Assembly: GCF_026914265.1 (NCBI RefSeq)
Contig: NC_069133.1
Coordinates: 48,609,355 to 48,673,354 of the forward strand
Source: Mya arenaria
Lineage: Eukaryota
Length of the DNA stretch: 64,000 nucleotides
Reading direction: 5' to 3'
Shown here: positions 7,100-64,000 of the stretch, in pieces
Layout: every line of letters begins with the position of its first letter
Position numbering within the stretch: position 1 is the stretch's first letter
Position numbers and translations under genes: made by a program
Notes under the pieces: generated by a model
Databases searched by the model: none
What the model was told of the DNA's origin: nothing
What the model saw: only the letters and a program-made list of their open reading frames with translations

Positions 7100-8650
7100 A
7101 AGCTTGAATGAGTGAGCCAGGTAGTCCGGAACAGTTCACGTCGTAAACCATCGTAAGAAGGACAGACCAGAAGAAAGTGGTACTCATCTTCTATTACATT
7201 GTAACCAGTACTCGAGCATAATGGACAGGATCGGATTTCCCGTGCAATATTCTAGTGTCTTCCTTTTTCTATCATATCAAGCGTATGACCTGAGCATCTT
7301 AAGTTTGCAAAACATTTTTTCCAAGGATATGGTAGGTCTATTGACAAATAACGTTCTGGGTCAAGAAGAGTTTTATAGTGTTTATAATGTTCAGCTTTTG
7401 GTGACGACTCAATATTTGCATACAAGTTCTGTATGGAACAGTCTTTCAACCTGTTCGTGAACATTTTCATGAATATGTTTGGTTGACCAACATCTTGCGC
7501 TATCCATGCGTATCCAAAGCCGTGTTCAAATATGATATTTTTAATGTGTGTTACCCAACTACTACGACCAGCATTATCCATATTCAAAAGCATAATGTAA
7601 CACTGACGTGGATATCTATTACTGGTCATGTTCATAATTTTGATCCAATATCTAACACATTTTGGAAGATAAATTGTCAGCATTGGTAGTCTACCACACT
7701 CGCTCAAAGCAAAAAAGTTTGAAACTGTTCTATTTAGCCCACACAGTTTCTTGCAGAAGTTATAATGCACTTTTTCTATGTTCTGGCAGTATTTGTATCC
7801 CCAAATTTCTGACGAGTAACATAAAATTGGCGTTACCATAGAGTCGAATAGTTTAAACGCATCTTTGATATGAAAATGACCAAAATGATTTTGGTAGCGG
7901 AATATAACTGAAATTGCTTTCGTTACCTGTTTTGAAAGATGATCGGTTGTCATAGCCCATCTTAATTTAGGCGTAAAAAATGAGCCGAGGTACATATATG
8001 ATGACACAACTTCAAGTTGTATTTCCCTGTACCACCATCTTTCATAATGCCGCAACGTGCCCCCGTTTCGGAAAACCATTACTTTTGATTTGTCCGTATT
8101 AATGTTCATACCTGTGCTGTCACAGAACCTATCGATAAGGTTAATTTGAGCTTGTAGATTACGGGCTCTATATATATACATGGGTGGTAAAAATAACACA
8201 TACAATTGCATAAGCCATATACAGTTAAAATGTTTTCTAGTTCTTAAGTTTTACACAATATAATTTTACAGGCGGATAGCGGATGCGTATTAAATGGTTA
8301 CTTATTATGGACCCGTGCACAAGAAATACAATTCGTACAAAGGTTCCTGTTTTCGCCTTCGTTTCGTCGCTCCTTCGCCTTCGTATCTTCCTGTCTTCGC
8401 CTTCGTCCCTTCGCTCCTTCGCCATCGTACTTTCCTGTCTTCGCCTTCGTCCCTTCGCTCCTTCGCCTTCGTACTTTCCTGTCTTCGCCTTCGTCCCTTC
8501 GCTCCTTCGCCTTCGTACTTTCCTGTCCTCGCCTTCGTCCCTTCGCGTCTTCGCTCCTTCCAGTAAGGGCGAAGACACGATGGCCCTACCGGTAATCTTT
8601 CTCGCACTCTCTCGGCTCGAACCATACTCACAGTAACGCAGAAATGCATA
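7100..8650 (-). mobile_element. 5'-truncated non-LTR (LINE) retrotransposon fragment: C-terminal part of the reverse transcriptase/ORF2 (ORF 7252..8211 minus strand) plus degenerate upstream region
   Basis: The 319-aa ORF carries LINE RT C-terminal hallmarks: NINTDKSKVMVF, YLGSFF, and a downstream ...LRCSGHTL... region like the LRTGH motif of many LINE ORF2 tails. The upstream RT core domains are absent from the ORF, so the element is truncated or decayed. Confidence 0.6.
8356..8565. repeat. 44-bp tandem repeat x about 4.7 (ccttcgtcccttcgctccttcgccttcgtactttcctgtcttcg)
   Basis: Direct reading. Produces frame-shifting R/E-rich pseudo-ORFs on both strands. Confidence 0.85.
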
Positions 8651-10366: not shown

Positions 10367-13300
10367 GTAATTTGCTTGTATAAATATATGCAATTCTATA
10401 TTATATACTGAGTATACATTTGTACATGTACAACTATTGGTTTCTAATATGTAACATATCCAATAACTACTAGTCGCCCATCAATAGGGCATACTTTTCT
10501 TCTAATTTTAAGGCTTTTCTAAGGGAACATGGAAACAATTTCTAAAGCACTGAAAGTTTCATAAAATCTTTAATCAACATCACTTTAAAGCTGCATTCTC
10601 ACAGATTGAATGTTTTGACAACTTTGTTATTTTTATACCCCCACAAACGAAGTTTGAGCGGGTATATAGGAGTGAGCTTGTCGGTCGGTCGGTTTTCATG
10701 GTTTCCGGACGAGAACTCATGAAAGGCTAGACAGATTTGAAAATTTTTTGGTACACAGGTGTAACATCATGAGATACAGGTCAAGTTCGATATTGGGTCT
10801 GGTGGGGCCAAGGTCAAGGTCACTGTTACTAAAAATAGAAAAACGGTTTCCGGACAATAAATCATGAAAGGCTAGACAGATTTGAAAAATTTTTGGTACA
10901 CAGGTGTAACATCAGAAGATACAGGTCAAGTTCGATATTGGGGCTGGTGGGGCCAAGGTCAAGGTCATTGTTACTAAAAATAGAAAAACGGTTTCCGGAC
11001 GATAACTCATGAAAGGCTAGTTTTTCTTGTCAGCAGTGTAACTTCTAAATTACTCAACAGATTTAAATAAAACAATACATGCATGATAAAAGAAGATGCA
11101 GTGTGCAGTAACCTTGGAGTTATGGCCTCTTTTCAAAGGAATGGTTTGCCATTCCTGTGTCCAGGCGGCATTTGGGGGTATTCGTCACTCCTGTGACAGC
11201 TCTAGTTTGTCTTGGAACAAGCCAATTTTTGGGTAAAAATCTAGGGAAACCAGTTATTTAAGACTGCTGACAAAAATTTAGATCACAGATTTTTATATTT
11301 AAGTTTAAAATTGATGTTTTATGCATTTTTCTTAAACCGTTAGTAACCGTAAAAAATTAATTTTCAAACGGAAATATGAAAATCTGCGATCTGATCTTTT
11401 GTCAGAAATCTTTAATCATTAGTTTGCAGATATTTACGCAAAAATTTGCTCTTTCCAAGACATGAAATAAGAAAGTTGTAAAAATGTTATATCTGTGAGA
11501 GTGCAGCTTTAAGAAGTACATATGCATATAATTTTAACTGTATTTCAATAAAACATTTTTTTTTTTTGGTTCAAGAATTACACAGCTTTTGATATATGTT
11601 GGTTGTCTTGCATAATTAAAATAAAACTGACTTCATCTTAGGATTAGCTGGCTCTCTCCAGTCATCCACACTTTTATCAGGGAGTGTTGGTCAGGACACG
11701 CGAAAACGGAAACCAGATAGCAAGAAATCAGATGTTTGTGAAAAAAAGTCTCGAGACAGCCTCCTGTCTGGCCTCACAGGCAACACATTGCTGGGTAGTA
11801 CTGGTTCAAAGTCTACAATGCTCAGTGAGTAATCATGTGCTGGTGACTATTTGATAGTCATTTTTCATTATGTGTATTTCTCCATTTTTTCCTTAGGGCT
11901 ATTCCAGTTAAACATATGTCCCACCCCAGGACGGCAAAATAAAGAAATTCTGTAGGGGGTAGGTCTTTTTCTTAATTTGCTACTGTAGGGGGTGGTGATA
12001 AGTCCAATTTCGCTTCTATAGGGGGGCGTCATTTTCTTTTTTGCTTTTGACCGTATCTGCTCATTTATATTCACTGCCCGATGGTGAAATACCGTTTTTT
12101 TTTATCCATATAACATATTTTACCGAACGTCGTGTACAGAATTGGTTTGGATACAAATCTTCGCGATATTACGCGTCGGTTCCGCGGTACCGGAAATCAG
12201 AAGAAGTTGCGTCCTTTGACAACAAGATGGCGGAGGCGCCAGAATTTGTAAAGTCGTGACCAACCTACAAAATTGGCTAGAAACCAATAGTTGCGCCGCA
12301 TGTGTGGATACGTTTCGTGGTAAGTATACCAAATTGCAGTGTTCGACACTAACGGGGTCCCGGGATCCCGAGGACACCAGTTTTTCAGGAGGGACACCTG
12401 AACTTCGAAGTCCGGTATTCCGTCGGGACACTTTAAATTTCTGACTGATAAACGCTAAATATCAATAAATAAGTAGCATTTAATTAATTTATTACCTAAA
12501 TTCGGGCTCCCTAAATTTCTTGACAGCACATGTCAAAACAATATTATTAATTATCATTATCGGACTCATCAAAGCCACGGATAGGTCCGTGTCAAAGCGA
12601 AAGTATAGCTGACTATTTGACTATAGTTACGTCATGAATCTATAAATAAACAGGTCATTTCACAGGCGCATGCAGGTTAACGCTTCCGTTTTGTTGTTTA
12701 CATTTTAAACAAGGTCAGAGCTGACAGAGATTTATTATCGGTAAAATACTTATGTGGAATTGTTTTGCTTATGTGTCAGAACCGCCCAAAAAGATGCCAA
12801 CTCTGATGATACCTTTTATATAATATGATGCGACCTTTGAGTATTTACAGTAACATTTACGACACAAAAGAACTGCATCCTACATTCAGCATTCTTTGTT
12901 AATTGGCATTCAACTTATCAATATTCTTTGTTAATTTTAAAGACATATATTTTATGCCTTGATAAAAAATAATAGAAATAAAATTTGCAGGGTTTTATTC
13001 ATTAATTCAATAAATTTATAAAATTTTATGACTTTTTGGCGCGAAAATTAACATGTATACACAATTTTTGGTCGTCTGCTCTTCCAGTATGCACTACGAC
13101 TGTTGGGCAGTCTGATTGATTTATCAACAGCTCTACTAAATATTGATTGGAGTTTTCACAAGCCAGATGTAATATTCCTACAGTTTCTTAATGAAAAGCA
13201 CCGACATTTGACAAGACCCTGAACCATGATGTATTTTATGCGTATTTTCCAAAAATCTAAAAATAGTAACAACATCAAGTTTTTGTTTACATTGTATCCA

Positions 13301-19300: not shown

Positions 19301-22300
19301 ATTTACCATAAAAGTACAGATAATTCATACCCTTAATATTATGGTTGACTTGAAATTCATCATGATTTTTTTTGAATATTCAACAGAAGTGATTTGATTA
19401 AGTTGAACAAAAAATTCTAAGAATTTGATATATAATCATAATTATGAGATATGATAGATGTTTAGAAACTAACTACATACCATTCTTCCACATGTATATG
19501 TTTGTCTTCCAGGACATTGTGTATGATGATGGAGAGAGCCCTGAACAGTTACAGAAGATGAGCTTCACCCTGAAGCAGCTTATCCGGAAACTACACATCA
19601 CCGAGCCAGTGGAACATGTCATGTGCCTTATTGGGAAAAAGTAGGTCACTTGTACATTGGTACATGAGAACATATTGTAGGGTTATAAGGCTTATACATG
19701 TAGTAGTCTTAAATAATAGATGTGTTAAACTTTTTTTTCTCATCCCTAACATAGTGAAGGATTTGCCATATAAAAAATCATAAAAAAATCTGTCCACGTA
19801 CAATTATTAAGAGTAATACATGTAGATAACAATACTGCATGTAGCTTGGTAAGTGGAGCATGTCAGGTGTGTCATTGAAAAAAGTAGGGCCGTGTATTGA
19901 TACATAAAAATATATTGTAGGTATGTTAAGGCGTATGTGCATGTAGGTACATAATTATACTGCATATCACTTGGCCAGTGGAAAATATGATATTTCTAAT
20001 TGGCAAAAAGTAGGTCCGTTGAGTACATGTGTATTGATACATAAGAACATGTTGAAGGGATGTTATAAAGGAATGTACATGTTGTTGATACATAAATTAA
20101 ACATCACTGAATATATCCTACGTGTTGAGTGTGCCTTTATAGGTAGGTCATTTATAGTGGCATCATCTTGGTGTATACCAACTTTTGATCATTACACAGT
20201 GTAACATGCCATATGCTTCATTGAGAAAAGAAAGCTGAGTTCCGTCATAGTCAACTTCTGGTTTTCATTGATAACTCAATTTTTTGTGGCATGGTGTCTT
20301 GTTGCTTAAGTTTGGGAATCTGGGTCACAAGGGCACTTGAATTGAAATGAAATCTTGCACTTCATTCTTGGTCAAGGGTGCTTGTTCTTATAACTATGTA
20401 AAAGAAAACACAACTCCTAGTGCATCATTGATCCACTGTGGAATAAAGGTTCAAGCCGTATAAAATGGTATTAAAATGACCTTGTTTTCACCCTTGATAA
20501 CAGTAAACTATCATAAGTTAATTATGTAATCACACTAAATCATTTAAATGACAAAACTTATCTTCATGAAACTTGATGTATATGTTGGTCTCGCATTCCA
20601 GGTACCCAACAACCCTAGAAGAGTTTTACAGATGCCGGTTACCAGGAACATTTGATGAAGAGCGAGCTGGAAAGCGTATGAAGCTGCCTGTCCCAGAGAC
20701 ATGGGAGACTCAGGTGTCACTTAAGGGGAACAAGGCAGCGACATGGCAGGAACTGCTAGGTAGGGGGACTTTTAACTTAGATATAGATTCACATGAAATG
20801 ACACATAGTTTATGTGTTTTTATACTGAGCCAATAAACTCTTTGGAGACCCAGGTGGCCATTCCACCAAAAATCCTATATACCCTTTCATAAAACTTGCG
20901 GCATACAGGGGGATGAGCAGCTTAATGCTTTAATCTTAAACTTTGAAAACCAATATGTGGTTTTAAAGTGTAGGAATTAAAGACATTGGAGAAATGTTAA
21001 GCTTGCTTTTTTGAGAAAGCAGTTAAGAAACATAATAAAAAATAACATTTTTCCACAGTATTCCAAAGTAAGATGAGAAATGTAAGAAAGAGCAAATCAT
21101 CAACAAAGAAACAATGCAATTAACCTGTGGATGTTTTGCACAAGAAAGATTTATTTTTCATGACACTACCAATGTGTTAATCTAAATCCATGTGATATTT
21201 GCAGATCACAAGAAGTTACCCTTCATGGCAATGTTGCGTAACTTGAGAAACCTGATTAAAGCTGGGATCTCCTCCAAACACCACACTGGGATCATTCGAA
21301 GGCTCACTGATGATGTAAGGTTATAGAGAACATCTTAGTCATGGAATGTGTCACACAGCAAAACTTAAACACACATTGGTTTTATATTATTTTCTTTATT
21401 ATATAGTACAATTCATTCTTGAACTTGTTTTCAAGGTTAGGGTTTTCTGACTTTGGCCCAAAATTTGTGACATTGGTCAAATTCACACATAATTATTCAA
21501 AATTATTGTATCTATTTCACTCTAACAGTACTGTTACCGATATGCAGAATTGGTAATCCTATTTTTCATATCTTTTAATGAAATGCATACTTATATGCAT
21601 CCAGAGGCATAATTGTTATTTACAGTTGCTTCTCAAGCTCCAGATAGTGTTTTGAAATTACACATTTATAGAAATATTTATGTACATACTTTGAAAATGT
21701 GAAGCGCAAAACAAGTGACCTTCAACTGTATAACTACATAATTTACAACCTTTTATCAAAGTAAAGACACTGCACAAATGTTCACAAATTCATGACATAA
21801 GTGTCTACAGAAGCTCTCAAAACTTTCTTCAGTCAAGAACACATTCATGTTCATGGTTTTAACCACTTGAGCATGAGCCAATTAACATCCATTCTCTATA
21901 CACATTGTGAACATTGCAAATTGATTTTGATAAAGGGTAGTACTACATCTGTTAACACTTTTGTTACAATGTTTTTTTCAACCATTTTGAGTTGGGCTGG
22001 GGCTTTTTAGATTGGGAAAAATACCTCATTTTGACTAAAATTGACAGTTTGTGTGATCAAGTATATTTCTATTTGTGTTAGCAGTCAAATTGCCATGCTA
22101 AATTGGTCAGAAAAGACACTTTATTGTAAAGACTATGTTAACATTTACATGACTGTATTGAATCAAAGCTAAGGTGACATTGTATTACACTATAGTACCA
22201 TAACCCTTTTTCCATCTTTCAGAGACAAGTAATCAACAGCAAGCAGTTTCCATTCAGATTTTTCTCAGCTTATGAAGTACTGGAACAACTTCAAAAGGAT

Positions 22301-25300
22301 TATGAAACATCCCGTAAGTTAATGTTAATGGACCATAGCAGTTTATGGTTTGTTCAGGAAACTTAGGAAAAATCATCAGAGAAAAATGCTAGCTATTTTC
22401 CTTGCTGTGATCTTGTCTGTGGCTGGGTTGCTCATATTTTTTTTAACAATAACTAAGTTTTAAAGAACTAAGTCTTAAGGTAGTTGTATAGCTGTCCAGC
22501 TTTCACCTATAAGGTCATGTGTTCAAACCCCACCAGGGACACATTCTCTCGACCAAAAAGGCCCAGTTGTTTTCTATCCATAAAACAGACTTGAGGGTTT
22601 ACATCAGCTGTCAGGTTTCTTCACAATCGAGTGGAACTATATTAATATAAACTGACATGGCAACCATGGGGGGCAAACAACTATGCTTGTGAAAGTAGAG
22701 AATTCACAGTAAATTACTTATACTGGATACATTATCCAATGTATCATCTCAAAAAATATTATTATTATTATTTCCCAGAGGCAGCTATAATAGCAGAGGC
22801 TGAAGAAATGGCAGCTGGTGGAGGCCAACCTAAGCATACTAAGGCGAAGAAAGAGAAACTGACGGCTGACAACTGGTGGGCCATCAAGAAACAGAGGAAA
22901 AAGGAGAAGGACAAAAAACCAAAGTGAGTCTGATTGTTTTTGTGAAGGATTTGGTATCATCTGCAAATACATGAGACAAATTGGTATAAACTTGTCCAGC
23001 ATTCGTGTCATCATCAACACTGTCATTCATTTCTGATCAATGATACTTTTGAATAATGTTTTAAAGATTTTTTAGGCTTGGTTCGCTCCTTGGTTATGGT
23101 CAGTAGATGACCCTAGGTGACCCCATTTGATTTTAGGGTCATGAGTAGATCAAAGCCAAGGTCATGACAATATTTATTGCCCCTTTCAGCCATCACTTTT
23201 GTTTTGCAAAATTCTAGTTTTAAATTACATATCATTTCTTTTAATATATGTAGTCTTTTATTTGCAAACATTGTGGATTAGCTGGTGTGGAATTAGTTTT
23301 GGTCATTTCCTTGATTTCAAATTAATTTTATAAAATCTAAAACATTAAAACATAGAATTGTTTAGTATATTTTTATCATGAAATGATAATTTGATGTATC
23401 TTTGGTAGGGGGGTAAATGCTTGCCTGTAAACCACACTTGTACCATGTTTAAGAGAGTTTTCTTGGTGTGCGTCTCTGCATTATCCTCCACATTAGAATG
23501 GTAACAAGAAGGCGGAGCATACCCATGCAATTAATAGTGTTGAGGATATGACAATGCTTTTCATTTATAGAAATGCTTGTTATTGAACGTTGTCCTTGAC
23601 AACATGGTACAAACAGTTACTAGTGATTAAGTTTATACAACTCACGCTTTGTGTTATGTAGAATTGTTATAGTTCTAGTAGCAGTGGCAGTTAATATTTC
23701 TAATTAAAAACTTGAATCAAAAAGCCCTAGACACATCTGTGACGAGAGCCACAGTGTACAATGTTGCTAGACTGAGCAGGAAAAGTTTTTTGTGTACCTC
23801 AGAGCTAAACAAAAATGATATCCACATTTCAGGGAGACGCCTTTTGACTCGGGAATCATAAACCGGTACAGGAAAGCCCTAGACACAGCTGTGAAGATTG
23901 CAACTGTTTACAATGTGGCTCCTATCAGAGGAAGGACTTTAATACTGTGTAATGTCAGTTCAGCAATGGATGCTCCCTGTACAGCAGCTCGAGGGCTCGG
24001 AAAACCAAGAACTGTAAGTTCAAAGACAAGACAAACAAAATTAAAATACATACATGTATGTGGTAATAAAGATACCGTGTATAACTGGCTGAGCTTGATC
24101 AGAAAAAGAAGACAACTGTGAAGTTAATCTGCAATTTAAGATATAATCATTTAGAAATTGCATAACAAATGTTTTGTTTATTTGAAATACAAAGAAAACT
24201 TAGCTCATAAATAATTATGTTGATTAGTATGTTTATGAGATACCAAAACTGAGAATTTTTAAAATAGACATCTGCATACCCCAATACATGAAGTAGTCTG
24301 TGAGCATTTGAAAACAACAACATGTTTTCCATTCTATATTACATAGAGTATTTATTGACCTTATTTTTAGATGAGGGAGGTATGCATCCTTCTGGGTCTG
24401 ATGTGCAAGTATTCATGCGAGGACAGCACCATGATCATCTTCGACTCAGACCTGTCTAGATACATCAGCGTGAAACCCAAAACTGGCACAATCTTGGAGA
24501 ATATGCGACTCGTGTTGGAGACTGATGTCACTGAGGGTCGTCTTGGGAACTTCAACGAGGGTCTACCCATGGAGATCTTGTATGACGGTCTGCGAGATAG
24601 AATACAGGTTGATCTTTGGAATCCTTGTGGTTTCATTTCTTTGTTTAATGTTTTTTATATAAGTTTATTCGAGCAGCACTTTTAAAAGGCAATCAAAGGG
24701 ATATTGCTGTACACAGCTTATAAAAGCTCAACAAAGCACGAACACTTGGGCTCATATGAAATGTAAGAAAATCATGTTAAAAAATTGTTGTATCGATGTA
24801 AGAAAAATATTATTCACATGTTTATGTGAGCAATAACTTGCATAAATATACATTATAATTAAGTTGAAGTCTTACGTAATAATATCTCTCTAAACAAGGT
24901 TCCCACTATTCTATCTGAACCTTATATTGTTTTTACCTGTCATATTGGCTTAGTTACCACGTCTGTTTTTCAGAGACAGAAAGTTGAGGAACTGTCATTG
25001 TCTTGGTTTTCACAACGATGTCATTATAAGGGAAAAAATAACTCCATAATTGCCATATCTCAAAAACTGTTGATTGTCTTTTGTTCAGCAGTGCTCTTGT
25101 TTTCTATTGGGCTAAGGATAAAAATCATTTAAGATTAATCATTTAAAATATTCATACGTTCAGTACAGAACGGAGAGAAATTATATTTTGTAAATGTAAA
25201 TGCAAAAAAAATGTACCCAAAGTACCGGTACTTCCAAAGCTGATATTCTTCAAATTAACTCTCCATTTCAGATTGACAACCTGTTGTTGATGACCGTGTC

Positions 25301-54460: not shown

Positions 54461-55961
54461 TTAAATTGATGTCTGCTTTGTAGCTCTACCGTAATAGTTG
54501 TACCAGTACACCACATTCAATGTTACATTGTTCTTTGCACAGATCTTCACAACTGCCTAGTAGAATACTGGGGTCTGTAGGTCCAAGTAAAAATCTTTTG
54601 GGTTTATTTTGTTATAACAACCAATTTCACATCTGCTTTATAACTTCACATTATTGAATGACTGTTTCAGTGTGATTTGAGCAATGGTGATTACTTCAAA
54701 CTAAAAATGTCCCCATATAAAATAATGGAGCAAACGCCAATGCTTGTCAAGATTTTTCAAACGAACAAGAGCCATAACTAAATAATCATTAAAGCCACGA
54801 TTATGGGCCTTGCTGTTCAAGGGCTCATTGTCACCAGTTGAATATCTTGAAGCAGTTTTGACTTACACCCATGATTGTTTTCCAGCTATGAAGAACTGAA
54901 GCCATCGCAGCTATTTCGAAACCCCGACTTTATCTTCGAAAACAGATGAGCCCATAAACATCTGGTTTCTGATCAAGTGTTTAAAGTAGACACAAAAGTT
55001 ACACAAGCAGAAGCCAATTAACGCTCATCTTTTTTCTTAGTCATAACAGTGGCATTTCCCAACATATATTTTTACCAGAGTTATACACTTGCTACAAGTA
55101 TATAGCCATTTTGAAATGTGCAACTAGTCTTAAAGTGTGCACAGAGATCAATATCTATGATGGCGGAAACAGTAGCTCTTCTGTCTCAGCAAATGTAGGA
55201 ATACATGTTTGTGTAAATCTCGACCAAGACAACTAACACATTTACAATTTTATTTATGCGATAACAATTTAACATCAGTTTTAAATGCGCAATGGATGAG
55301 ATTCCTATGGCCTTACCATTAATACTCTATTAAAGTATTAAACAAAACAGTTAGCCATCACTAGTCATTATGTGACAAGCAATTACACACAAATCCCTGG
55401 CCATGAGTAATTGACATTCCTCTTGATTGTTGGCCGGGGTCCATAGTCAGTAGATTAATATTATTACAATATGGTCTTGTTTTACCAACTCAAGGGCGAA
55501 ACTTCATGACTGATGTAGCAATCTTACTGGTTATCACACAGTTCAGTAACAATCAGACTTGAATCAGCATCAGTTACAGTACAAGAGACCAGCTAAGGAA
55601 GTGAATTTCATACATGCACCTCTCGACTCTTCCCAAAATGAAAATAGATCACAAATAAGCTTCACCCAACAAGCAAAGTTTTCTATTGGTCTGGGCCCAT
55701 TAGTCTCAAAGCAACGCTCTTGACAATTTAAACTTAGTGTAAATTGCCAATTATTAAACAAAGAATAATTTACATCCTTTCTACTTCAATTAGACTTTTA
55801 GTATATAACCATTTACAGTTTTCATCAATAAAGTATTTGTTACATGTCCAATAATCAAGAAGAAATAGACATTCTGACCCAGTTTCCTGAAGGTAAGGTT
55901 AAAAATGCTATCGCTAACAAGATTTTTCATGTCATAATCTTTGAACTAAAGATTTTTACAT

Positions 55962-56153
55962 TGTTCAAGGTGTGTTAAACCTAAGATTCATGACAGTAGG
56001 AAAGTTGAGTGGTGTGTTGTTATGTGTCTGGAAGGAGTCATTGTTTGTAATCGACCCGTATGTATCGTCCATATTTGTATCTTGTCTCATCGCTGGTTTC
56101 TCCCCTCGTAGATGCTGAATCTGCTTTAAGATGGCTTTGGCTTCTTCCCGTGT
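55962..56153 (-). CDS. CDC23: Last coding exon of the CDC23/APC8-like gene (TREEAKAILKQIQHLRGEKPAMRQDTNMDDTYGSITNNDSFQTHNNTPLNFPTVMNLRFNTP*)
   Basis: Minus-strand ccttttcag acceptor. Open to the stop, within the supplied ORF 55965..56177(-). Confidence 0.55.
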
Positions 56154-56207
56154 CTGAAAAGGTAATGAATAAATCATAAGGCTAAAAAAGATACAATATC
56201 ATAAACA

Positions 56208-56520
56208 AGCTCTTGATGTAACATTGGTAGCCCTTAATGTAACATTGGTAGCTCTTGCTAGCTCTTGAAGTAACATTTCTAGCTCTTGATGTAACATTTC
56301 TAGCTCTTGATGTAACATTGCTAGCTCTTGATGTAACATTTCTAGCTCTTGATGTAACATTTCTAGCTCTTGATGTAACATTTCTAGCTCTTGAAGTAAC
56401 ATTTCTAGCTCTTGATGTAACATTTCTAGCTCTTGATGTAACATTTCTAGCTCTTGATGTAACATTTCTAGCTCTTGATGTAACATTGCTAGCTCTTAGT
56501 GCAACATTGTTTGCTATTTA
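56208..56520. repeat. 21-bp tandem repeat x about 14 (TAGCTCTTGATGTAACATTTC) in the last intron of the CDC23-like gene
   Basis: Direct reading. Explains the supplied ORFs 56199..56486(-) and 56255..56644(+). Confidence 0.9.
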
Positions 56521-56834
56521 TACATCATTGATAGCTCTTGATAAAACATTGCTAACTAATTTTGCTATCTATACAGGGCTTGATCATTGCAAGTTCTTAT
56601 TGTGCTTGTTTAATGGTCACTACTTTGTATTATTTACCACCTAAAATCAATCTTTCCAAGTTGAGAAAAACAAACAGCTATAATGTAAATCATTGTAAAG
56701 TATCATTATTCTTCAGATACATACATTTTCATTGCTAATTTTGCTGACAAAAAGCTTGTATCAAATTCTTTAATATGTGTTATGGATTTCTCTATTTATA
56801 ACATTTAAAATGTATGATATAGATAATGAAATAC

Positions 56835-56960
56835 CTCTGTGAACTCAAGACAAGTCTGAGCGGCTTGATAAGCAGCATCCAACATGTTGTTTCTCAGATA
56901 ATAGTTGGCGAGATACTTGTACGCTTCACTCTGGCCCTCGTAACTCTGTGACTTTCCAGG
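56835..56960 (-). CDS. CDC23: Penultimate coding exon of a CDC23/APC8-like TPR protein (PGKSQSYEGQSEAYKYLANYYLRNNMLDAAYQAAQTCLEFTE)
   Basis: Minus-strand ctacag acceptor and GTATTT donor, phase 0 into the last exon. The pattern E.Y..LANYY…LD.A…AQ.CLEF.ETREEAKAILKQI matches my recollection of the CDC23 C-terminus (…FLANH…LEEAE.YCTRLLDY…EKETAKSLLREI). Confidence 0.55.
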
Positions 56961-57470
56961 CTGTAGAATACAGAAGATTGAACATAAACCATAGTAATAT
57001 AATATACTGTAATTTAGATATGTCTCGACAGTATAATATGTGGCGTCTTAGATGTTATTTCTCTGAATACAGTTTGCAAGATACTTGTACAACTCACTCT
57101 AGAGTTGTTCACCTCTGTGTCATTCTGGGCTGTAGAATAAGATTTAACATTATAATTAAAATAACTAAATATATTCTAATCTAAACAAGTTTGTGCAGCC
57201 TTAATTAAATTGTCCAACTTAATGTTTTTCCACAAATAATTAGCGAGGTAGTTGTTTGCTTTACTCTAGCCCTCATCACTCTGGAACATTTTTGGGCTGT
57301 AAGACTCAGAACATTACATAAATAATAATACTGTGGTATAGTCTAGACATGTCTGCGAGACATTGATAGACATTACTCTAAATTTTCACTCTGATCCAAA
57401 TAACTCCGCATCTTTTCCGGCCATTGAAATACAGACAGTTTCACTCTGATTCTTGCACTTTTTAACTGTG
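56835..57470 (-). repeat. About 170-bp tandem array x about 3-4. Copy 1 contains the CDC23 penultimate exon. Upstream copies (about 57040-57140, about 57225-57310 and about 57380-57460) are progressively decayed
   Basis: GATACTTGTACGCTTCACTCTGGCCCTCGTAACTCTG / GATACTTGTACAACTCACTCTAGAGTTGTTCACCTCTG / GGTAGTTGTTTGCTTTACTCTAGCCCTCATCACTCTG, each followed by GGCTGTAGAAT/GGCTGTAAGAC. Confidence 0.75.
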
Positions 57471-58237
57471 AGATATCATAAAATATTTTAAACAAATACT
57501 ACTTGTAAGGTTCAGTATGACGATGAACTTTGTTACTCTGCCAATTAAATATGTTTGAGCATGCATGTACAGTAAAACTGCGGTGGTTCGAACAGGCGGT
57601 GGTTCGAGAACCGGCGGTCCCTCGAGGTCGGAGCTTGGTCCCGAACATTTTTCCTTCTATTTTCATATAAAATATACTGATGCTGCATCGAAACCTAATT
57701 ATGTCAAGGAGTCGAGGACAATAGGGGGTCCCAAATACACAAATCATGCACAAAACCTTATGGCTCCCTCGAGGTCATAATTTCACACTTTATCCCGAAC
57801 GTATGTCCCAAGAAAAAAAAACAATTGCTAGGAGTTTTCGCAAGTTCTAAAAAAAAAAAGACAGTTAAAGGAGATTTGATTAGGTGTGAAAAACGTTCTT
57901 CACTGTTTACGCATTACCAATGATAGTTGATAAGGGCATTTGAGAAGATAATTAATAGTTTTAACAGTTTCGCGAGACAGACAAGATGCGCCAATCGTCA
58001 ATCCTTGAAGTTCTGAATCTTAAATCTGACTAATGCCATAATTTGTACTGTCATATTTAAATGTTGAATGTTTAGAAAATGTGTTTTTCATAAAAAATAA
58101 ACATAAATATTTATTCATCTTTAATTGTTTTTCTTTTACACTTCGTATACGAGGGCCTTTGAACATATGAGCGATTTCCACAACACAACACATAATCGGT
58201 GTCGTAGTAAACAGTCGGTTTGACGACTTAAAAACTT

Positions 58238-61200
58238 GTATTGTAGAAGTTATGGGACTAGCTGGACATGTGTGTGTTGTAGTAGTTATGGGACTAGCTG
58301 GACATACGTGTATTGTAGTAGTTATGAGACTAGCTGGACATACGTGTATTGTAGTAGTTATGGGACTAGCTGGACATACGTGTATTGTAGTAGTTATGGG
58401 ACTAGCTGGACATACGTGTATTGTAGTAGTTATGGGACTAGCTGGACATACGTGTATTGTAGTAGTTATGGGACTAGCTGGACATGTTTGTATTGTAGTA
58501 GTTATGGGACTAGCTGGACATGTGTGTATTGTAGTAGTAGTTATGGGACTAGCTGGACATGTGTGTATTGTAGTAGTTATGAGACTAGCTGGACATGTAT
58601 GTATTGTAGTAGTTATGGGACTAGCTGGACATGTATGTATTGTAGTAGTTATGGGACTAGCTGGACATGTGTGTATTGTAGTAGTTATGGGACTAGCTGG
58701 ACATGTGTGTATTGTAGTAGTTATGGGACTAGCTGGACATGTTTGTATTGTAGTAGTTATGGGACTAACTGGACATGTGTGTATTGTAGAAGTTATGGGA
58801 CTAGCTGGACATGTGTGTATTGTAGTAGTTATGGGCCAGCTGGACATGTGTGTATTGTAGTAGTTATGAGACTAGCTGGACATGTATGTATTGTAGTAGT
58901 TATGGGACTAGCTGGACATGTATGTATTGTAGTAGTTATGGGACTAGCTGGACATGTGTGTATTGTAGTAGTTATGGGACTAGCTGGACATGTGTGTATT
59001 GTAGTAGTTATGGGACTAGCTGGACATGTTTGTATTGTAGTAGTTATGGGACTAACTGGACATGTGTGTATTGTAGCAGTTATGGGACTAACTGGACATG
59101 TGTGTATTGTAGTAGTTATGGGACCAGCTGGACATACGTGTATTGTAGTTGTTATGTGACTAGCTGGTCATGTGTGTATTGTAGTTGTTATGTGACTAGC
59201 TGGACATAAGTGTATTGTAGTTGTTATGTGACTAGCTGGACATGTGTGTATTGTAGTTGTTATGTGACTAGCTGGTCATGTGTGTATTGTAGTTGTTATG
59301 TGACTAGCTGGTCATGTGTGTATTGTAGTTGTTATGTGACTAGCTGGACATGTGTGTATTGTAGTAGTTATGGGACTAGCTGGACATGTGTGTATTGTAG
59401 TTGTTATGTGACTAGCTGGACATGTGTGTATTGTAGTAGTTATGGGACTAGCTGGACATGTGTGTATTGTAGTTGTTATGAGACTAGCTGGACATGTGTG
59501 TATTGTAGTAGTTATGGGACTAGCTGGACATGTGTGTATTGTAGTTGTTATGTGACTAGCTGGACATGTGTGTATTGTAGTAGTTATGGGACTAGCTGGA
59601 CATGTGTGTATTGTAGTAGTTATGGGACTAGCTGGACATGTGTGTATTGTAGTTGTTATGTGACTAGCTGGACATGTGTGTATTGTAGTAGTTATGGGAC
59701 TAGCTGGACATGTGTGTATTGTAGTAGTTATGGGACTAGCTGGACATGTGTGTATTGTAGTAGTTATGGGACTAGCTGGACATGTGTGTATTGTATTTGT
59801 TATGTGACTAGCTGGACATGTGTGTATTGTAGTAGTTATGGGACTAGCTGGACATGTGTGTATTGTAGTAGTTATGGGACTAGCTGGACATGTGTATATT
59901 GTAGTAGTTATGGGACTAGCTGGACATGTGTGTATTGTAGTAGTTATGGGACTAGCTGGACATGTATGTATTGTAGTGGTTATGGGACTAGCTGGTCATG
60001 TATGTATTGTAGTAGTTATGGGACTAGCTGGTCATGTATGTATTGTAGTAGTTATGGGACTAGCTGGTCATGTGTGTATTGTAGTAGTTATGGGACTAGC
60101 TGGTCATGTATGTATTGTAGTAGTTATGGGACTAGCTGGTCATGTATGTATTGTAGTAGTTATGAGACTAGCTGGACATGTGTGTATTGTAGTAGTTATG
60201 AGACTAGCTGGACATGTGTGTATTGTAGTAGTTATGAGACTAGCTGGTCATGTATGTATTGTAGTAGTTATGGGACTACTGGTCATGTATGTATTGTAGT
60301 AGTTATGGGACTATCTGGTCATGTATGTATTGTAGTAGTTATGGGACTAGCTGGACATACGTGTATTGTAGTAGTTATGGGACTAGCTGGACATACGTGT
60401 ATTGTAGTAGTTATGGGACTAGCTGGACATACGTGTATTGTAGTAGTTATGGGACTAGCTGGTCATGTGTGTATTGTAGTAGTTATGGGACTAGCTAGAC
60501 ATGTGTGTATTGTAGTAGTTATGGGACTAGCTGGACATGTGTGTTTTGTAGTAGTTATGGGACTAGCTGGACATGTGTGTATTGTAGTAGTTATGGGACT
60601 AGCTGGTCATGTGTGTATTGTAGTAGTTATGAGACTAGCTGGACATGTGTGTATTGTAGAAGTTATGTGACTAGCTGGACATGTATGTATTGTAGTAGTT
60701 ATGTGACTAGCTTGACATGTGTGTATTGTAGTAGTTATGTGACTAGCTGGACATGTGTGTATTGTAGTAGTTATGGGACTAGCTGGACATACGTGTATTG
60801 TAGTAGTTATGGGACCAGCTGGACATGTGTGTATTGTAGTAGTTATGGGACTAGCTGGACATGTGTGTATTGTAGTAGTTATGGGACTAGCTGGACATGT
60901 GTGTATTGTAGTAGTTATGGGACTAGCTGGACATGTATGTATTGTAGTAGTTATGAGACTAGCTGGACATGTATGTATTGTAGTAGTTATGGGACGAGCT
61001 GGACATGTGTGTATTGTAGTAGGACTAGCTGGACATGTATGTATTGTAGTAGTTATGAGACTAGCTGGACATGTGTGTATTGTAGTAGTTATGAGACTAG
61101 CTGGACATGCGTGTATTGTAGTAGTTATGGGACTAGCTGGACATGTGTGTATTGTAGTAGTTATGGGACTAGCTGGACATGTGTGTATTGTAGTAGTTAT

Positions 61201-63836
61201 GGGACTAGCTGGACATGTGTGTATTGTAGTAGTTATGGGACTAGCTGGACATGTATGTATTGTAGTAGTTATGAGACTAGCTGGACATGTATGTATTGTA
61301 GTAGTTATGGGACGAGCTGGACATGTGTGTATTGTAGTAGGACTAGCTGGACATGTATGTATTGTAGTAGTTATGAGACTAGCTGGACATGTGGGTATTG
61401 TAGTAGTTATGAGACTAGCTGGACATGCGTGTATTGTAGTAGTTATGGGACTAGCTGGACATGTGTGTATTGTAGTAGTTATGGGACTAGCTGGTCATGT
61501 ATGTATTGTAGTAGTTATGGGACTAGCTGGTCATGTATGTATTGTAGTAGTTATGGGACTAGCTGGTCATGTGTGTATTGTAGTAGTTATGGGACTAGCT
61601 GGACATGTGTGTATTGTAGTAATTATGGGACTAGCTGGTCATGTGTGAATTGTAGTAGTTATGGGACTAGCTGGACATACGTGTATTGTAGTAGTTACGG
61701 GACTAGCTGGTCATGTGTGTATTGTAGTAGTTATGAGACTAGCTGGACATGTGTGTATTGTAGTAGTTATGGGACTAGCTGGACATGTGTGTATTGTAGT
61801 AGTTATGGGACTAGCTGGACATGTGTGTATTGTAGTAGTTATGGGACTAGCTGGACATGTGTGTATTGTAGTAGTTATGGGACTATCTGGTCATGTGTGT
61901 ATTGTAGTAGTTATGTGACTATCTGGACATGTATGTATTGTAGTAGTTATGGGACTAGCTGGACATGTGTGTATTGTAGTTGTTATGTGACTAGCTGGAC
62001 ATGTTTGTATTGTAGTAGTTATGGGACCAGCTGGACATGTATGTATTGTAGTAGTTATGGGACTAGCTGGTCATGTGTGTATTGTAGTAGTTATGAGACT
62101 AGCTGGACATGTGTGTATTGTAGTAGTTATGGGACTAGCTGGACATGTGTGTATTGTAGTAGTTATGGGACTAGCTGGACATGTGTGTATTGTAGTAGTT
62201 ATGGGACTAGCTGGACATGTGTGTATTGTAGTAGTTATGGGACTATCTGGTCATGTGTGTATTGTAGTAGTTATGTGACTATCTGGACATGTATGTATTG
62301 TAGTAGTTATGGGACTAGCTGGACATGTGTGTATTGTAGTTGTTATGTGACTAGCTGGACATGTTTGTATTGTAGTAGTTATGGGACCAGCTGGACATGT
62401 ATGTATTGTAGTAGTTATGGGACTAGCTGGTCATGTGTGTATTGTAGTAGTTATGAGACTAGCTGGACATGTGTGTATTGTAGAAGTTATGTGACTAGCT
62501 GGACATGTGTGTATTGTAGTAGTTATGAGACTAGCTGGACATGTGTGTATTGTAGAAGTTATGTGACTAGCTGGACATGTGTGTATTGTAGTAGTTATGG
62601 GACTAGCTGGTCATGTGTGTATTGTAGTAGTTATGAGACTAGCTGGACATGTGTGTATTGTAGTAGTTATGAGACTAGCTGGACATGTGTGTATTGTAGA
62701 AGTTATGTGACTAGCTGGACATGTGTGTATTGTAGTAGTTATGGGACTAGCTGGACATGTGTGTATTGTAGTAGTTATGAGACTAGCTGGACATGTGTGT
62801 ATTGTAGAAGTTATGTGACTAGCTGGACATGTGTGTATTGTAGTAGTTATGGGACTAGCTGGTCATGTGTGTATTGTAGTAGTTATGGGACTAGCTGGAC
62901 ATAGCTGGACATACGTGTATTGTAGTTGTTATGGGACTAGCTGGTCATGTATGTATTGTAGTAGTTATGGGACTAGCTGGACATGTGTGTATTGTAGTAG
63001 TTATGGGACTAGCTGGTCATGTATGTATTGTAGTAGTTATGGGACTAGCTGGCCATGTATGTATTGTAGTAGTTATGGGACTAGCTGGACATGTGTGTAT
63101 TGTAGTAGTTATGGGACTAGCTGGTCATGTATGTATTGTAGTAGTTATGGGACTAGCTGGTCATGTATGTATTGTAGTAGTTATGGGACTAGCTGGTCAT
63201 GTATGTATTGTAGTAGTTATGGGACTAGCTGGTCATGTATGTATTGTAGTAGTTATGGGACTAGCTGGTCATGTATGTATTGTAGTAGTTATGGGACTAG
63301 CTGGTCATGTATGTATTGTAGTAGTTATGGGACAGCTGGTCATGTATGTATTGTAGTAGTTATGGGACAGCTGGTCATGTATGTATTGTAGTAGTTATGG
63401 GACTAGCTGGTCATGTATGTATTGTAGTAGTTATGGGACTAGCTGGTCATGTGTGTATTGTAGTAGTTATGGGACTAGCTAGACATGTGTGTATTGTAGT
63501 AGTTATGAGACTAGCTGGACATGTGTGTATTGTAGTAGTTATGGGACTAGCTGGTCATGTGTGTATTGTAGTAGTTATGGGACTAGCTGGACATGTGTGC
63601 ATTGTAGTAGTTATGGGACTAGCTGGACATGTCTGTATTGTAGTAGTTATGGGACTAGCTGGACATGTGTGTATTGTAGTAGTTATGGGACTAGCTGGAC
63701 ATGTTTGTATTGTAGTAGTTATGGGACTAAATGGACATGTGTGTATTGTAGTAGTTATGGGACTAGCTGGACATGTGTGTATTGAGTAGTTATGGGACTA
63801 GCTGGACATGTGTGTATTGTGGTATTTATGGGACTA
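58238..63836. repeat. Satellite DNA: 36-bp unit (TGTAGTAGTTATGGGACTAGCTGGACATGTGTGTAT) x about 155, about 5.6 kb, with variant subfamilies and local higher-order repeats of about 310-360 bp
   Basis: Direct reading. Identical 85-aa pseudo-ORFs 360 bp apart (61661 versus 62021). The repeated block 60990-61130 versus 61310-61450. Runs of a GTTGTTATGTGACTAGCTGGTCATG variant at 59150-59350 and of TCATGTATGTATT variants at 62950-63450. Confidence 0.95.
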
Positions 63837-64000
63837 TTTTAAAATTGGGCCAGCAGATTCTGAGGAGAGCATTTTCAAAGTTTTCCAAACAGACAAATAG
63901 TAAAAAGTAGCCGTAACCCCCTGGAAGCCCTCTTTTTACAAGTCAATATAAGATGTAGAACTTCAGATAGAGGGTCATTTCTGAGATATTATTAAACAAG

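Follow-up and report, generated by a model that had tools for sequence, protein, structure and literature searches.

Tandem exon duplications have been reported for about 10% of animal genes, and homologues of exons have been reported in adjacent introns (PMC9013439). Exonic nucleotides that have a homologue of at least 80% identity within the same gene amount to about 2% in human, 0.08% in fly, and 0.06% in worm (PMC9013439). Tandem duplications across exon-intron junctions have been described in the potato RdRp gene (PMC4974935) and in Drosophila cases (PMC2891723), and internal gene duplications spanning exon-intron boundaries were treated by Gao and Lynch (2009), as cited in PMC4974935. 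For Mya arenaria, the tandem duplications treated in the genome paper are limited to somatic ones of about 11 kb and those of the D-loop, and exon-level arrays are not covered there (PMC10663159). Our literature search found no papers on exon duplication in bivalves. Minisatellites and internal tandem repeats carrying splice sites were reportedly described by Zhuo et al. in 2007. Splice sites within repeats of this kind are documented (PMC2812944). The array described here, which lies in the CDC23 gene of Mya arenaria, can be assigned from its sequence to one of these known classes, namely tandem exon duplication that leaves pseudoexons.

The window, i.e., the whole stretch of 64,000 nucleotides that was analyzed, contains a TEP1-like gene that matched WAR22045.1 (annotated as TEP1-like, Mya arenaria) exactly, exon by exon, and the 3′ end of a second gene, whose exons further upstream lie beyond position 64000. 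The exact TEP1 match identifies the DNA as that of Mya arenaria. When the two exons of this second gene were joined and compared with human CDC23, query residues 9-65 aligned with residues 508-566 of 597 (E=1.2e-9), which belong to the C-terminal TPR region; Pfam gave only sub-threshold TPR matches. By this homology, the gene is identified as CDC23/APC8 (anaphase-promoting complex subunit 8), the identity that an earlier, sequence-only reading of the same DNA had proposed. The penultimate exon of the gene has an open frame and canonical AG/GT splice sites (acceptor ttctacag/CCT, donor GAG/gtattt). With a small splice-site matrix derived from 45 TEP1 junctions, its acceptor scored 7.8 bits and its donor 6.4 bits, which places them at the 98th percentile among all AG and the 96th percentile among all GT, respectively. 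Word-indexed protein searches returned only short ORF fragments of metagenome contigs and no annotated Mya protein, and the second search used an over-strict E-value cut-off and missed short exons. The orthologue of the last exon was P0001 on contig L003. Comparison of the penultimate exon with its orthologues from four contigs revealed differences mainly at third codon positions, with counts at the first, second, and third positions of 5, 5, and 27 (p=2e-6) and of 5, 6, and 21 (p=5e-4). The coordinates of both exons and of the array are collected in Table 1.

Table 1. Exons of the CDC23/APC8-like gene and units of the exon-derived array, in positions of the 64,000-nt window.
Feature	Position	Strand	Description
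Last coding exon, CDC23/APC8-like	55965..56153	-	TREEAKAILKQIQHLRGEK...NTP; stop codon 55965-55967; acceptor ccttttcag/ACA
Penultimate CDC23 exon, functional	56835..56960	-	126 nt, phase 0/0, encodes PGKSQSYEGQSEAYKYLANYYLRNNMLDAAYQAAQTCLEFTE; core of unit 1
Unit 1	56815..56985	-	flanks and working exon; alignments; profile match E=6e-50
Unit 2, predicted pseudoexon	56986..57155	-	exon-equivalent 57003-57129; profile E=4e-42
Unit 3, predicted pseudoexon	57156..57325	-	exon-equivalent 57170-57296; profile E=5e-44
Unit 4, probable and most decayed pseudoexon	57326..57455	-	exon-equivalent 57332-57420; profile E=0.043 at 57385-57443

The array runs head to tail on one strand (minus) over positions 56815-57455, with a period of about 169 nt and no spacer. 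The working exon forms the 3′-most unit, and the three other units are located in its upstream intron. Each unit corresponds to the whole 126-nt exon together with 25 nt of acceptor flank, consisting of upstream intron with the polypyrimidine tract and the AG, and about 18-20 nt of donor flank, which holds the GT. The first exon-equivalent bases were found at 56960, 57129, and 57296, giving acceptor spacings of 169 and 167 nt. Alignment of unit 1 with unit 2 and with unit 3 gave z=20.4 in each case, and the observed score was reached by none of 1000 dinucleotide shuffles. Global identity to unit 1 was 65% for unit 2 and 62% for unit 3, and 79-82% over the first ~100 alignment columns. Orthologous exons of other species matched units 2 and 3 directly, and the alignments identify these two units with certainty as copies of the exon. 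Unit 4 aligned to unit 1 with z=5.6, a score reached by 2 of 1000 shuffles and by 0 of 1000 real segments of the window, and a whole-window search with a profile of units 1-3 found it exactly at the expected adjacent position; on these weaker statistics, it is probably a further copy. The profile search, which covered the whole 64-kb window, detected no further copies of the 169-nt unit outside the array. Chunked self-BLAST and the profile search recovered the array, which was absent from the TRF output and from the whole-window self-BLAST listing; TRF missed it because the units are too diverged.

These results bear out the array that the sequence-only reading had described, headed by the exon at 56835-56960 and continued upstream by copies at a period of about 170 bp. 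The acceptor-side strings quoted in that reading are present at 56959-56970 (GGCTGTAGAATA), 57128-57141 (GGCTGTAGAATAAG), and 57295-57307 (GGCTGTAAGACTC), and the alignment of the units to the exon, which it had proposed as a check, placed the homology far beyond chance.

Units 2-4 are predicted to be dead, given that they have stops by codon 7, are frameshifted, and show no bias by codon position. In both unit 2 and unit 3, a single inserted nucleotide shifts the frame and the seventh codon is a stop (for unit 2, CCC AGA ATG ACA CAG AGG TGA, with stops in all three frames), and about 40 nt are missing from within unit 4. When unit 1 was compared with the copies, the differences were spread over the codon positions (13, 13, and 21; 12, 13, and 21; and 8, 11, and 16). 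In translation, the copies still show ...YKYLAN... and ...AAQTCLD..., and unit 4 keeps the exon end ...CAGACATGTCTAGACTATAC (QTCLDYT, compared to QTCLEFT in the exon). Units 2 and 3 have ten derived states in common, among them CAG>TAG (stop) and a 3-nt deletion at the donor, that neither unit 1 nor the outgroups possess; unit 4 does not have these derived states. On this basis, the two units are interpreted as sister copies of equal age, with only unit 4 being older, so that decay with distance from the exon is only partly progressive. The sequence-only reading had copies decaying progressively upstream, which is right for unit 4 but not for the two equally old sisters. Since the nonsense mutation and the donor deletion are common to units 2 and 3, their ancestor appears to have been dead before it duplicated.

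We consider the array to be a relic of small DNA-level tandem duplications within Mya arenaria CDC23/APC8 that has become neutral debris, with a probability of roughly 0.85. A segment of about 169 bp, comprising the exon and both splice flanks, would have undergone at least three head-to-tail duplications. The first event would have given rise to unit 4, the second to a copy that gained the nonsense mutation and the 3-nt donor deletion, and in the third this dead copy would have been duplicated, giving units 2 and 3. The 3′-most copy, the only one contiguous with the rest of the gene, would have been kept by purifying selection, and the other copies, being intronic, would have drifted neutrally, with about 0.4 substitutions per site accumulated since their origin, as estimated from first and second codon positions. 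With their donors lost or weakened, as scored with the small 45-site matrix, the copies would not be defined as exons and would be removed with the intron. Any copy that was included would introduce a stop within 7 codons and would be expected to become a target of nonsense-mediated decay. Both the expected lack of exon definition and the stop upon inclusion argue that the array most likely has no protein-coding role. It would represent one case of the junction-spanning tandem duplications that are over-represented in the window, and such duplications would be tolerated because one outer copy keeps working.

No copies were found upstream of the orthologous exon in about 1000 nt of contig L001, 175 nt of L002, and 785 nt of L004. 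The lack of a copy in the orthologous introns of L001 and L004 indicates that the event was specific to the Mya lineage, with only coarse timing, since L001, L002, and L004 come from distant species. The exon boundaries are the same in these three contigs; therefore, no new intron position was created, and intron gain by tandem duplication (Rogers model, exonic AGGT) was rejected. In contig L004, which belongs to another species, the orthologous CDC23 exon has a 75-nt x 8.8 array of its own, independent of that in Mya and young (95% identity). No arrays were found in the TEP1 genes of relatives (contigs L005-L011), among which L009-L011 have few or very short introns and are weak comparators.

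Beside the CDC23 array, eleven TEP1 exons in the window carry similar arrays. A same-strand non-exonic copy within 1.2 kb was observed for 12 of the 48 exons, compared to 7 of 400 length-matched non-exonic control segments (odds ratio 18.7, p=1.7e-8). A splice junction was spanned by 11 of the 13 long-unit arrays, where 20-35% would be expected (p=3e-5 to 4e-4). Array units ranged in length between 36 and 422 nt, with half of the lengths falling within 142-169 nt, near one nucleosome repeat. The TEP1 and L004 arrays (36-nt x 22, 75-nt x 8.8, and 151-nt x 3.6) contain a 5′ splice site in every unit. An informal look at the array boundaries gave intronic shares of 8 to 358 nt and no obvious breakpoint or microhomology rule.

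The sequence-only reading had seen in CDC23 the same signature as in TEP1, and had taken the second gene as evidence of a lineage- or genome-wide process and not of a TEP1 peculiarity. Junction duplication does occur in both genes; however, the TEP1 arrays comprise part of an exon and a single junction, in most cases the donor junction with downstream sequence, whereas the CDC23 array comprises the whole exon and both junctions and lies upstream. Similarly, the exon and array counts and the L004 array speak for a process that is not peculiar to TEP1, but two neighboring genes and one foreign contig do not establish that it is genome-wide.

The local excess could be due to a mutational preference for exon edges, to better survival of duplications there, or to both. 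As a tentative reading, exon-intron junctions of Mya arenaria, and perhaps of bivalves, may be mutational hot spots at which short tandem duplications and minisatellites arise. In that case, a large share of exons would be expected to carry junction-anchored pseudo-splice-site arrays, from which novel splice sites, extensions of exons, and alternative exons would continue to emerge. It is possible, though doubtful, that duplications arise uniformly and that the exon-anchored excess reflects only survivorship and detection. In that case, arrays that include an exon would remain recognizable for longer, because selection would keep one copy unchanged and DNA next to exons would be protected from deletion. 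In simulations, the detectable lifetime of junction arrays was indeed 1.5-fold longer (0.366 compared to 0.242, mutation rate x time), and the exon-anchored arrays of the window are mostly old (66-82% identity), the sole long-unit intronic array (10700-11020) being young (94%). However, the excess persisted after allowing for a 1.5-fold lifetime (p=2.6e-5 over the entire window and 3.7e-4 within the genic span), the exon-centered odds ratio stands at 18.7, and young exon-anchored arrays do exist, with identities of 88% at 29936, 87-94% at 43482, and 95% in L004.

For the CDC23 array itself, we considered a regulatory role, in which the copies, though likewise born by tandem duplication, would serve as poison exons or decoy 3′ splice sites and adjust CDC23 output through unproductive splicing and nonsense-mediated decay, with the acceptor side now under selection. 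The acceptor of unit 2 is kept at 5.8 bits, with an AG 5 nt downstream that scored 7.1 bits, and that of unit 3 scored 8.0 bits, as strong as the acceptor of the working exon; inclusion from the acceptor of either unit would lead to an in-frame TGA as the seventh codon. At 20 of 21 aligned positions, the acceptor flank of unit 2 was identical to that of unit 1, and the 5′ part of the copies has outlasted the 3′ part (76% compared to 52% in unit 2, p=0.002; 69% compared to 51% in unit 3, p=0.02), a bias that pure neutral decay does not predict. This bias could be due to gene conversion from the exon or to some acceptor-side constraint, and a short gene-conversion tract would explain it equally well. 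The homologous donors, on the other hand, are weak or lost in every copy, being weakened to 2.9 bits in unit 2 and changed from GT to AT in unit 3, which makes exon definition unlikely. The acceptor AG is retained in units 2 and 3 but not in unit 4, where CAG has become ATG and the acceptor is gone. Nothing is conserved across species either, as L001, L002, and L004 have no counterpart. Hence, of the features of a poison exon, the premature stop upon inclusion is present, whereas usable sites at both ends and conservation are lacking, and a regulatory role is improbable.

Less probable still is that the copies descend from a cluster of mutually exclusive exons that was once functional and later died in Mya. 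In favor of this, the exon is symmetric (phase 0/0, 126 nt), and clusters of this type typically arise from units that comprise a whole exon and both of its splice sites (PMC9013439). However, the common nonsense mutation and donor deletion show the ancestor of units 2 and 3 as already dead when it duplicated, the substitutions have no coding signature, and the orthologous introns of three other species are without a copy. The copies contain no open frame in the same phase, and their two splice sites are not both functional.

Chance similarity, low complexity, or a transposable element with a captured exon can be dismissed as highly unlikely, even in an AT-rich region amid satellites, by z values of about 20 that no shuffle reached, by the exon peptides still legible in the copies, by the exact contiguity of the units with the parent exon and the lack of a dispersed copy in the 64 kb, and by the lack of a tRNA or Rfam feature. 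A 5.6-kb satellite of 36-nt units (58237-63836) lies in the intron upstream of the array. Neither this satellite nor a 21-nt minisatellite (56208-56554) showed similarity to the CDC23 exon or its splice sites, by eye and in frame translations. A mir-980 Rfam match in the 21-nt minisatellite (24 bits, compared to a gathering score of 47) was treated as chance; no Rfam feature was above threshold, and no tRNA or SINE-like gene was found at 55000-58300. An 82-nt array at 47528-47697, 21 nt past the donor of exon 43, was tested and rejected as not exon-derived.

As a relic of intragenic tandem duplication, the CDC23 array taken alone is a textbook by-product with no likely function. Its dead copies can be regarded as dated exon fossils, at about 0.4 neutral substitutions per site, and they suggest by which steps an essential gene can render the duplicate of a whole exon harmless, with the donor lost first and the acceptor kept. 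Together with the eleven TEP1 exons and the L004 array, they point to an unusually high rate or survival of junction-spanning duplications in the lineage. If confirmed genome-wide, this would matter for bivalve gene annotation, because decoy splice-site arrays mislead gene predictors, and it would bear on the birth of exons and splice sites and on what targets duplication to exon edges.

Among the described systems, tandem exon duplication (Letunic, Copley, and Bork, 2002, as cited in PMC9013439; Ivanov and Pervouchine, 2022, PMC9013439) resembles the CDC23 array in its head-to-tail exon copies with splice flanks. As in that work, the array was found by exon-intron homology and represents a lineage-specific event (PMC9013439). 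It differs in that all extra CDC23 copies appear dead, with no potential for alternative splicing as coding exons, and in the high local density, with 25% of the exons in the window having a copy. Mutually exclusive exon clusters such as those of Dscam1 and tropomyosin (PMC9013439) likewise derive from tandem duplication of a symmetric exon with both splice sites; the CDC23 copies, unlike these, have stops, frameshifts, degraded donors, and no conservation, and do not form a functional cluster. Internal boundary-spanning duplications (PMC4974935, PMC2891723) are similarly small and include a junction, so that splice signals are inherited and one set keeps working. Those papers deal with the creation or sliding of introns, whereas the intron positions of CDC23 are unchanged and its duplicates are intronic debris. 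Splice-site minisatellites (PMC2812944) find their counterpart in the TEP1 and L004 arrays, with a 5′ splice site per unit. In contrast to those minisatellites, the arrays described here have their origin at the edge of a coding exon that is conserved, the first unit being the working exon end, and the Mya CDC23 array is old, low in copy number, and not expanding.

A query joining the two CDC23-like exons of the window matched residues 508-566 (597 in all) of PDB chains of human CDC23 at E=1.2e-9, and the metagenome contigs L001, L002, L003, and L004 yielded orthologous CDC23 exons; the gene identity proposed in the sequence-only reading is therefore correct. Pfam gave sub-threshold TPR matches only. 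The CDC23 exons further upstream lie outside the window, and the intron runs beyond position 64000. This intron carries a 36-nt satellite upstream of the pseudoexons and, just upstream of unit 4, a GC-rich stretch whose repeated motif resembles a tRNA T-loop, with no tRNA found there by ARAGORN. In the last intron, a 21-nt minisatellite, by eye not exon-derived, gave a sub-threshold Rfam match to mir-980 that is most likely due to chance.

When the minus strand is read, four consecutive units align, each spanning the whole exon with 25 nt of flank on the acceptor side and ~18-20 nt on the donor side. The acceptor-side strings quoted earlier are present, with homologous acceptors spaced 169 and 167 nt apart, and the proposed alignment of the units to the exon holds at the z scores in the table. 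Over the first ~100 columns, units 2 and 3 are 79-82% identical to unit 1. Unit 4 lacks ~40 nt internally; its alignment score was reached by 0/1000 real window segments, and searching the whole window with a profile of units 1-3 placed it at E=0.043, at the sole position expected for a fourth unit, with no further copies in the 64 kb.

Coordinates and properties of the CDC23 and TEP1 features (positions in the window unless a contig is named; z scores and shuffles refer to alignment with unit 1)
Feature	Position	Strand	Properties
CDC23 terminal coding exon	55965-56153	minus	TREEAKAILKQIQHLRGEK...NTP*; preceded by ccttttcag
CDC23 penultimate exon	56835-56960	minus	126 nt; phase 0/0; flanks ttctacag and gtattt; encodes PGKSQSYEGQSEAYKYLANYYLRNNMLDAAYQAAQTCLEFTE
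Unit 1	56815-56985	minus	exon segment 56835-56960, the working exon; reference for identities; acceptor 7.8 bits (98th percentile of all AG), donor 6.4 bits (96th percentile of all GT)
Unit 2	56986-57155	minus	exon-equivalent 57003-57129; 65% global identity; z=20.4; 0/1000 shuffles reach score; acceptor 5.8 bits (7.1 at AG 5 nt downstream), donor 2.9 bits
Unit 3	57156-57325	minus	exon-equivalent 57170-57296; 62% global identity; z=20.4; 0/1000 shuffles reach score; acceptor 8.0 bits, donor lost (GT>AT)
Unit 4	57326-57455	minus	exon-equivalent 57332-57420; 62% identity (120 columns); z=5.6; 2/1000 shuffles reach score; acceptor lost (CAG>ATG)
GC-rich stretch	57560-57640		motif GGCGGTGGTTCGA(A/G)(C/A)A
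Satellite, CDC23 intron	58237-63836		5.6 kb; 36-nt units, ~156 copies, 94% identity; strong GC skew, 0.26-0.55
Minisatellite, last CDC23 intron	56208-56554		21-nt x 14; 55 nt from last exon's acceptor
L004 orthologous CDC23 exon	L004 786-911
L004 array after CDC23 exon	L004 863-1517		75-nt x 8.8; 95% identity
TEP1 exons 8, 22, 24, 31, 38, 39, 40			exon tail + donor; copies downstream
TEP1 exons 13, 23, 27, 28			exon-head copy in upstream intron
TEP1 arrays	19590-20108, 23702-23920, 29936-30162, 30292-30516, 30989-31347, 32770-32812, 33568-33781, 35931-36128, 41565-42061, 43482-44080	plus
Satellite from TEP1 exon 39	42322-43155	plus	36-nt x 22.5
Tandem duplication, TEP1 intron 1	10700-11020		145 nt x 2.2; 94% identity; not exon-derived
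Tandem duplication	47528-47697		82 nt x 2; 80% identity; starts 21 nt past exon 43 donor; not exon-derived
319-aa ORF upstream of TEP1	7252-8211	minus	no Pfam match at E<=0.01; adjoins 44-nt x 4.8 satellite, 8344-8554

In units 2 and 3, translation from the acceptor that each retains runs into TGA at codon 7, and each carries a 1-nt insertion and stops in all frames. Where unit 1 differs from the orthologous exons, it does so mainly at third codon positions (5,5,27 by position, p=2e-6; 5,6,21, p=5e-4); its differences from units 2, 3, and 4 are scattered over the codon positions, not significantly uneven (13,13,21; 12,13,21; 8,11,16). First and second positions diverge by 31%, or ~0.40 after Jukes-Cantor correction, a value that estimates the copies' neutral age, and third positions diverge about twice as much, which is what drift of unit 1 at those positions as well would produce. 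Preservation is significantly better in the 5' part than in the 3' part (76% vs 52%, p=0.002, in unit 2; 69% vs 51%, p=0.02, in unit 3), and in their acceptor flanks units 1 and 2 agree at 20/21 positions; a short gene-conversion tract or weak constraint could explain the better-kept part.

Splice sites were scored with a position weight matrix built from 45 TEP1 junctions in the window. By these scores, acceptors persist in units 2 and 3 and donors are gone or weak, which suggests that the copies would not be defined as exons and would be removed with the intron; any copy used in splicing would give a substrate of nonsense-mediated decay.

Units 2 and 3 each lie nearer to unit 1 than they do to one another (55%), a pattern that fits two copies drifting away from a frozen unit 1. 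They have in common 10 derived states missing from unit 1 and the outgroups, among them CAG>TAG and the loss of 3 nt directly upstream of the donor, and are therefore sisters from an already dead copy. Unit 4 is without these states and more decayed, and is therefore an older, separate copy, so that at least three duplication events are needed. Of the progressive decay described earlier, the greater age and decay of unit 4 stand, and a stepwise order of units 2 and 3, as sisters, does not. No exon copies were found upstream of the orthologous exon in ~1000 nt of L001, 175 nt of L002, or 785 nt of L004, and between the window and these species the exons alone align; the duplications are therefore confined to the Mya lineage.

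Searching the full protein library with a WD40 exon of the neighboring gene identified P0037, WAR22045.1 ('TEP1-like protein, partial [Mya arenaria]'), which maps exon by exon to plus-strand 9894-51694 as 46 exons with GT-AG junctions; the window is therefore soft-shell clam DNA. The deposited model includes a 20-nt micro-exon (28676-28695) and weak-looking donors (GAT|gtggct and TAT|gtgaag, including the junction at 28120); the protein is labeled partial, and the annotation near 28120 and 28676-28695 may be wrong. In our reading, the translated ORF upstream of TEP1 looks like the end of a retroelement ORF. Of the 46 TEP1 exons, 11 are accompanied by tandem pseudo-copies that are anchored on a single splice junction. 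Apart from exon 39, the ten arrays have identities of 66% to 94% and periods of 96 to 422 nt. The exon 39 satellite repeats the exon's last 28 nt (ISVKLVEG) with the donor GTGGGT, placing ~22 consecutive 5' splice site copies directly after the real one. The duplications in intron 1 and past exon 43 are the window's only long-unit tandem duplications without exon origin.

Local direct repeats were collected by chunked self-BLAST of the window and overlaid on the exon map. With p values that hold for this window only (clustered controls, one 64-kb window, one dominant gene), 12/48 exons, CDC23 included, had a same-strand non-exonic copy within 1.2 kb, compared with 7/400 length-matched non-exonic controls (odds ratio 18.7, p=1.7e-8); of the seven positive controls, the array at 10700 alone accounts for five, and the other two come from the pseudo-copy of exon 27 matching its own exon. 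Under the same restriction, 11/13 long-unit arrays cross a junction, against 20-27% expected from target size. In a simulated detection pipeline, junction arrays stayed detectable 1.5 times longer, raising the expectation to 27-35%, and the excess persisted (p=2.6e-5 to 3.7e-4), weakening to p=0.003-0.02 with five short-period satellites counted as non-exonic arrays. Mutation may favor exon edges, arrays may survive better beside exons, or both may contribute to the excess.

Contig L004 (Ga0224511_10243538), from another species, has a CDC23 exon 83% identical in protein, and each unit of its array joins the 49-nt exon end (LDAAFQAAQTCLEFTE) to a donor (GTAAGT or GTAGGT) and 26 nt of intron. 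The exon duplicated in Mya has here undergone a separate and young event on its donor side. Together with the counts in the window and their caveats, it supports the earlier suggestion that the pattern is not a TEP1 peculiarity. A 43-nt x 7.9 minisatellite in L001 (598-937), not exon-derived, ends 85 nt upstream of the CDC23 acceptor and illustrates how common minisatellites near exons are in these genomes. Exon-anchored arrays were absent from L002, L003, and the short TEP1 contigs L005-L008. None occurred among ~21 TEP1 exons, with introns of ~100 nt, in L010 and L011 (GCA_029980185.1), and the arrays are therefore not intrinsic to TEP1.

We consider it highly probable (about 0.85) that the CDC23 array consists of neutral remnants left by three or more small tandem duplications, each of which would have copied the whole exon with its splice sites to yield units 2-4. 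A conserved poison exon was rejected on the weak or lost donors and the lack of copies in L001, L002, and L004, and a mutually exclusive exon cluster on the stop at codon 7, the insertions, the weak or lost donors, and the lost acceptor of unit 4. A transposon was rejected with no other copy in 64 kb, and intron gain on the exon boundaries shared with L001, L002, and L004.

Exon-level tandem arrays are not mentioned in the Mya genome paper (PMC10663159). Tandem exon duplication and exon homologues in neighboring intronic DNA are already well described, with ~2% of exonic nucleotides in human, 0.08% in fly, and 0.06% in worm having within-gene homologues at >=80% identity (PMC9013439). Tandem duplications across exon-intron junctions are likewise known, and are discussed mostly for how introns are gained or slide (PMC4974935, PMC2891723; Gao and Lynch 2009 as cited in PMC4974935). 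What stands out is the local density and recurrence of junction-anchored arrays; the locus itself is ordinary, and its array is a further case of the known tandem duplication of exons and junctions.
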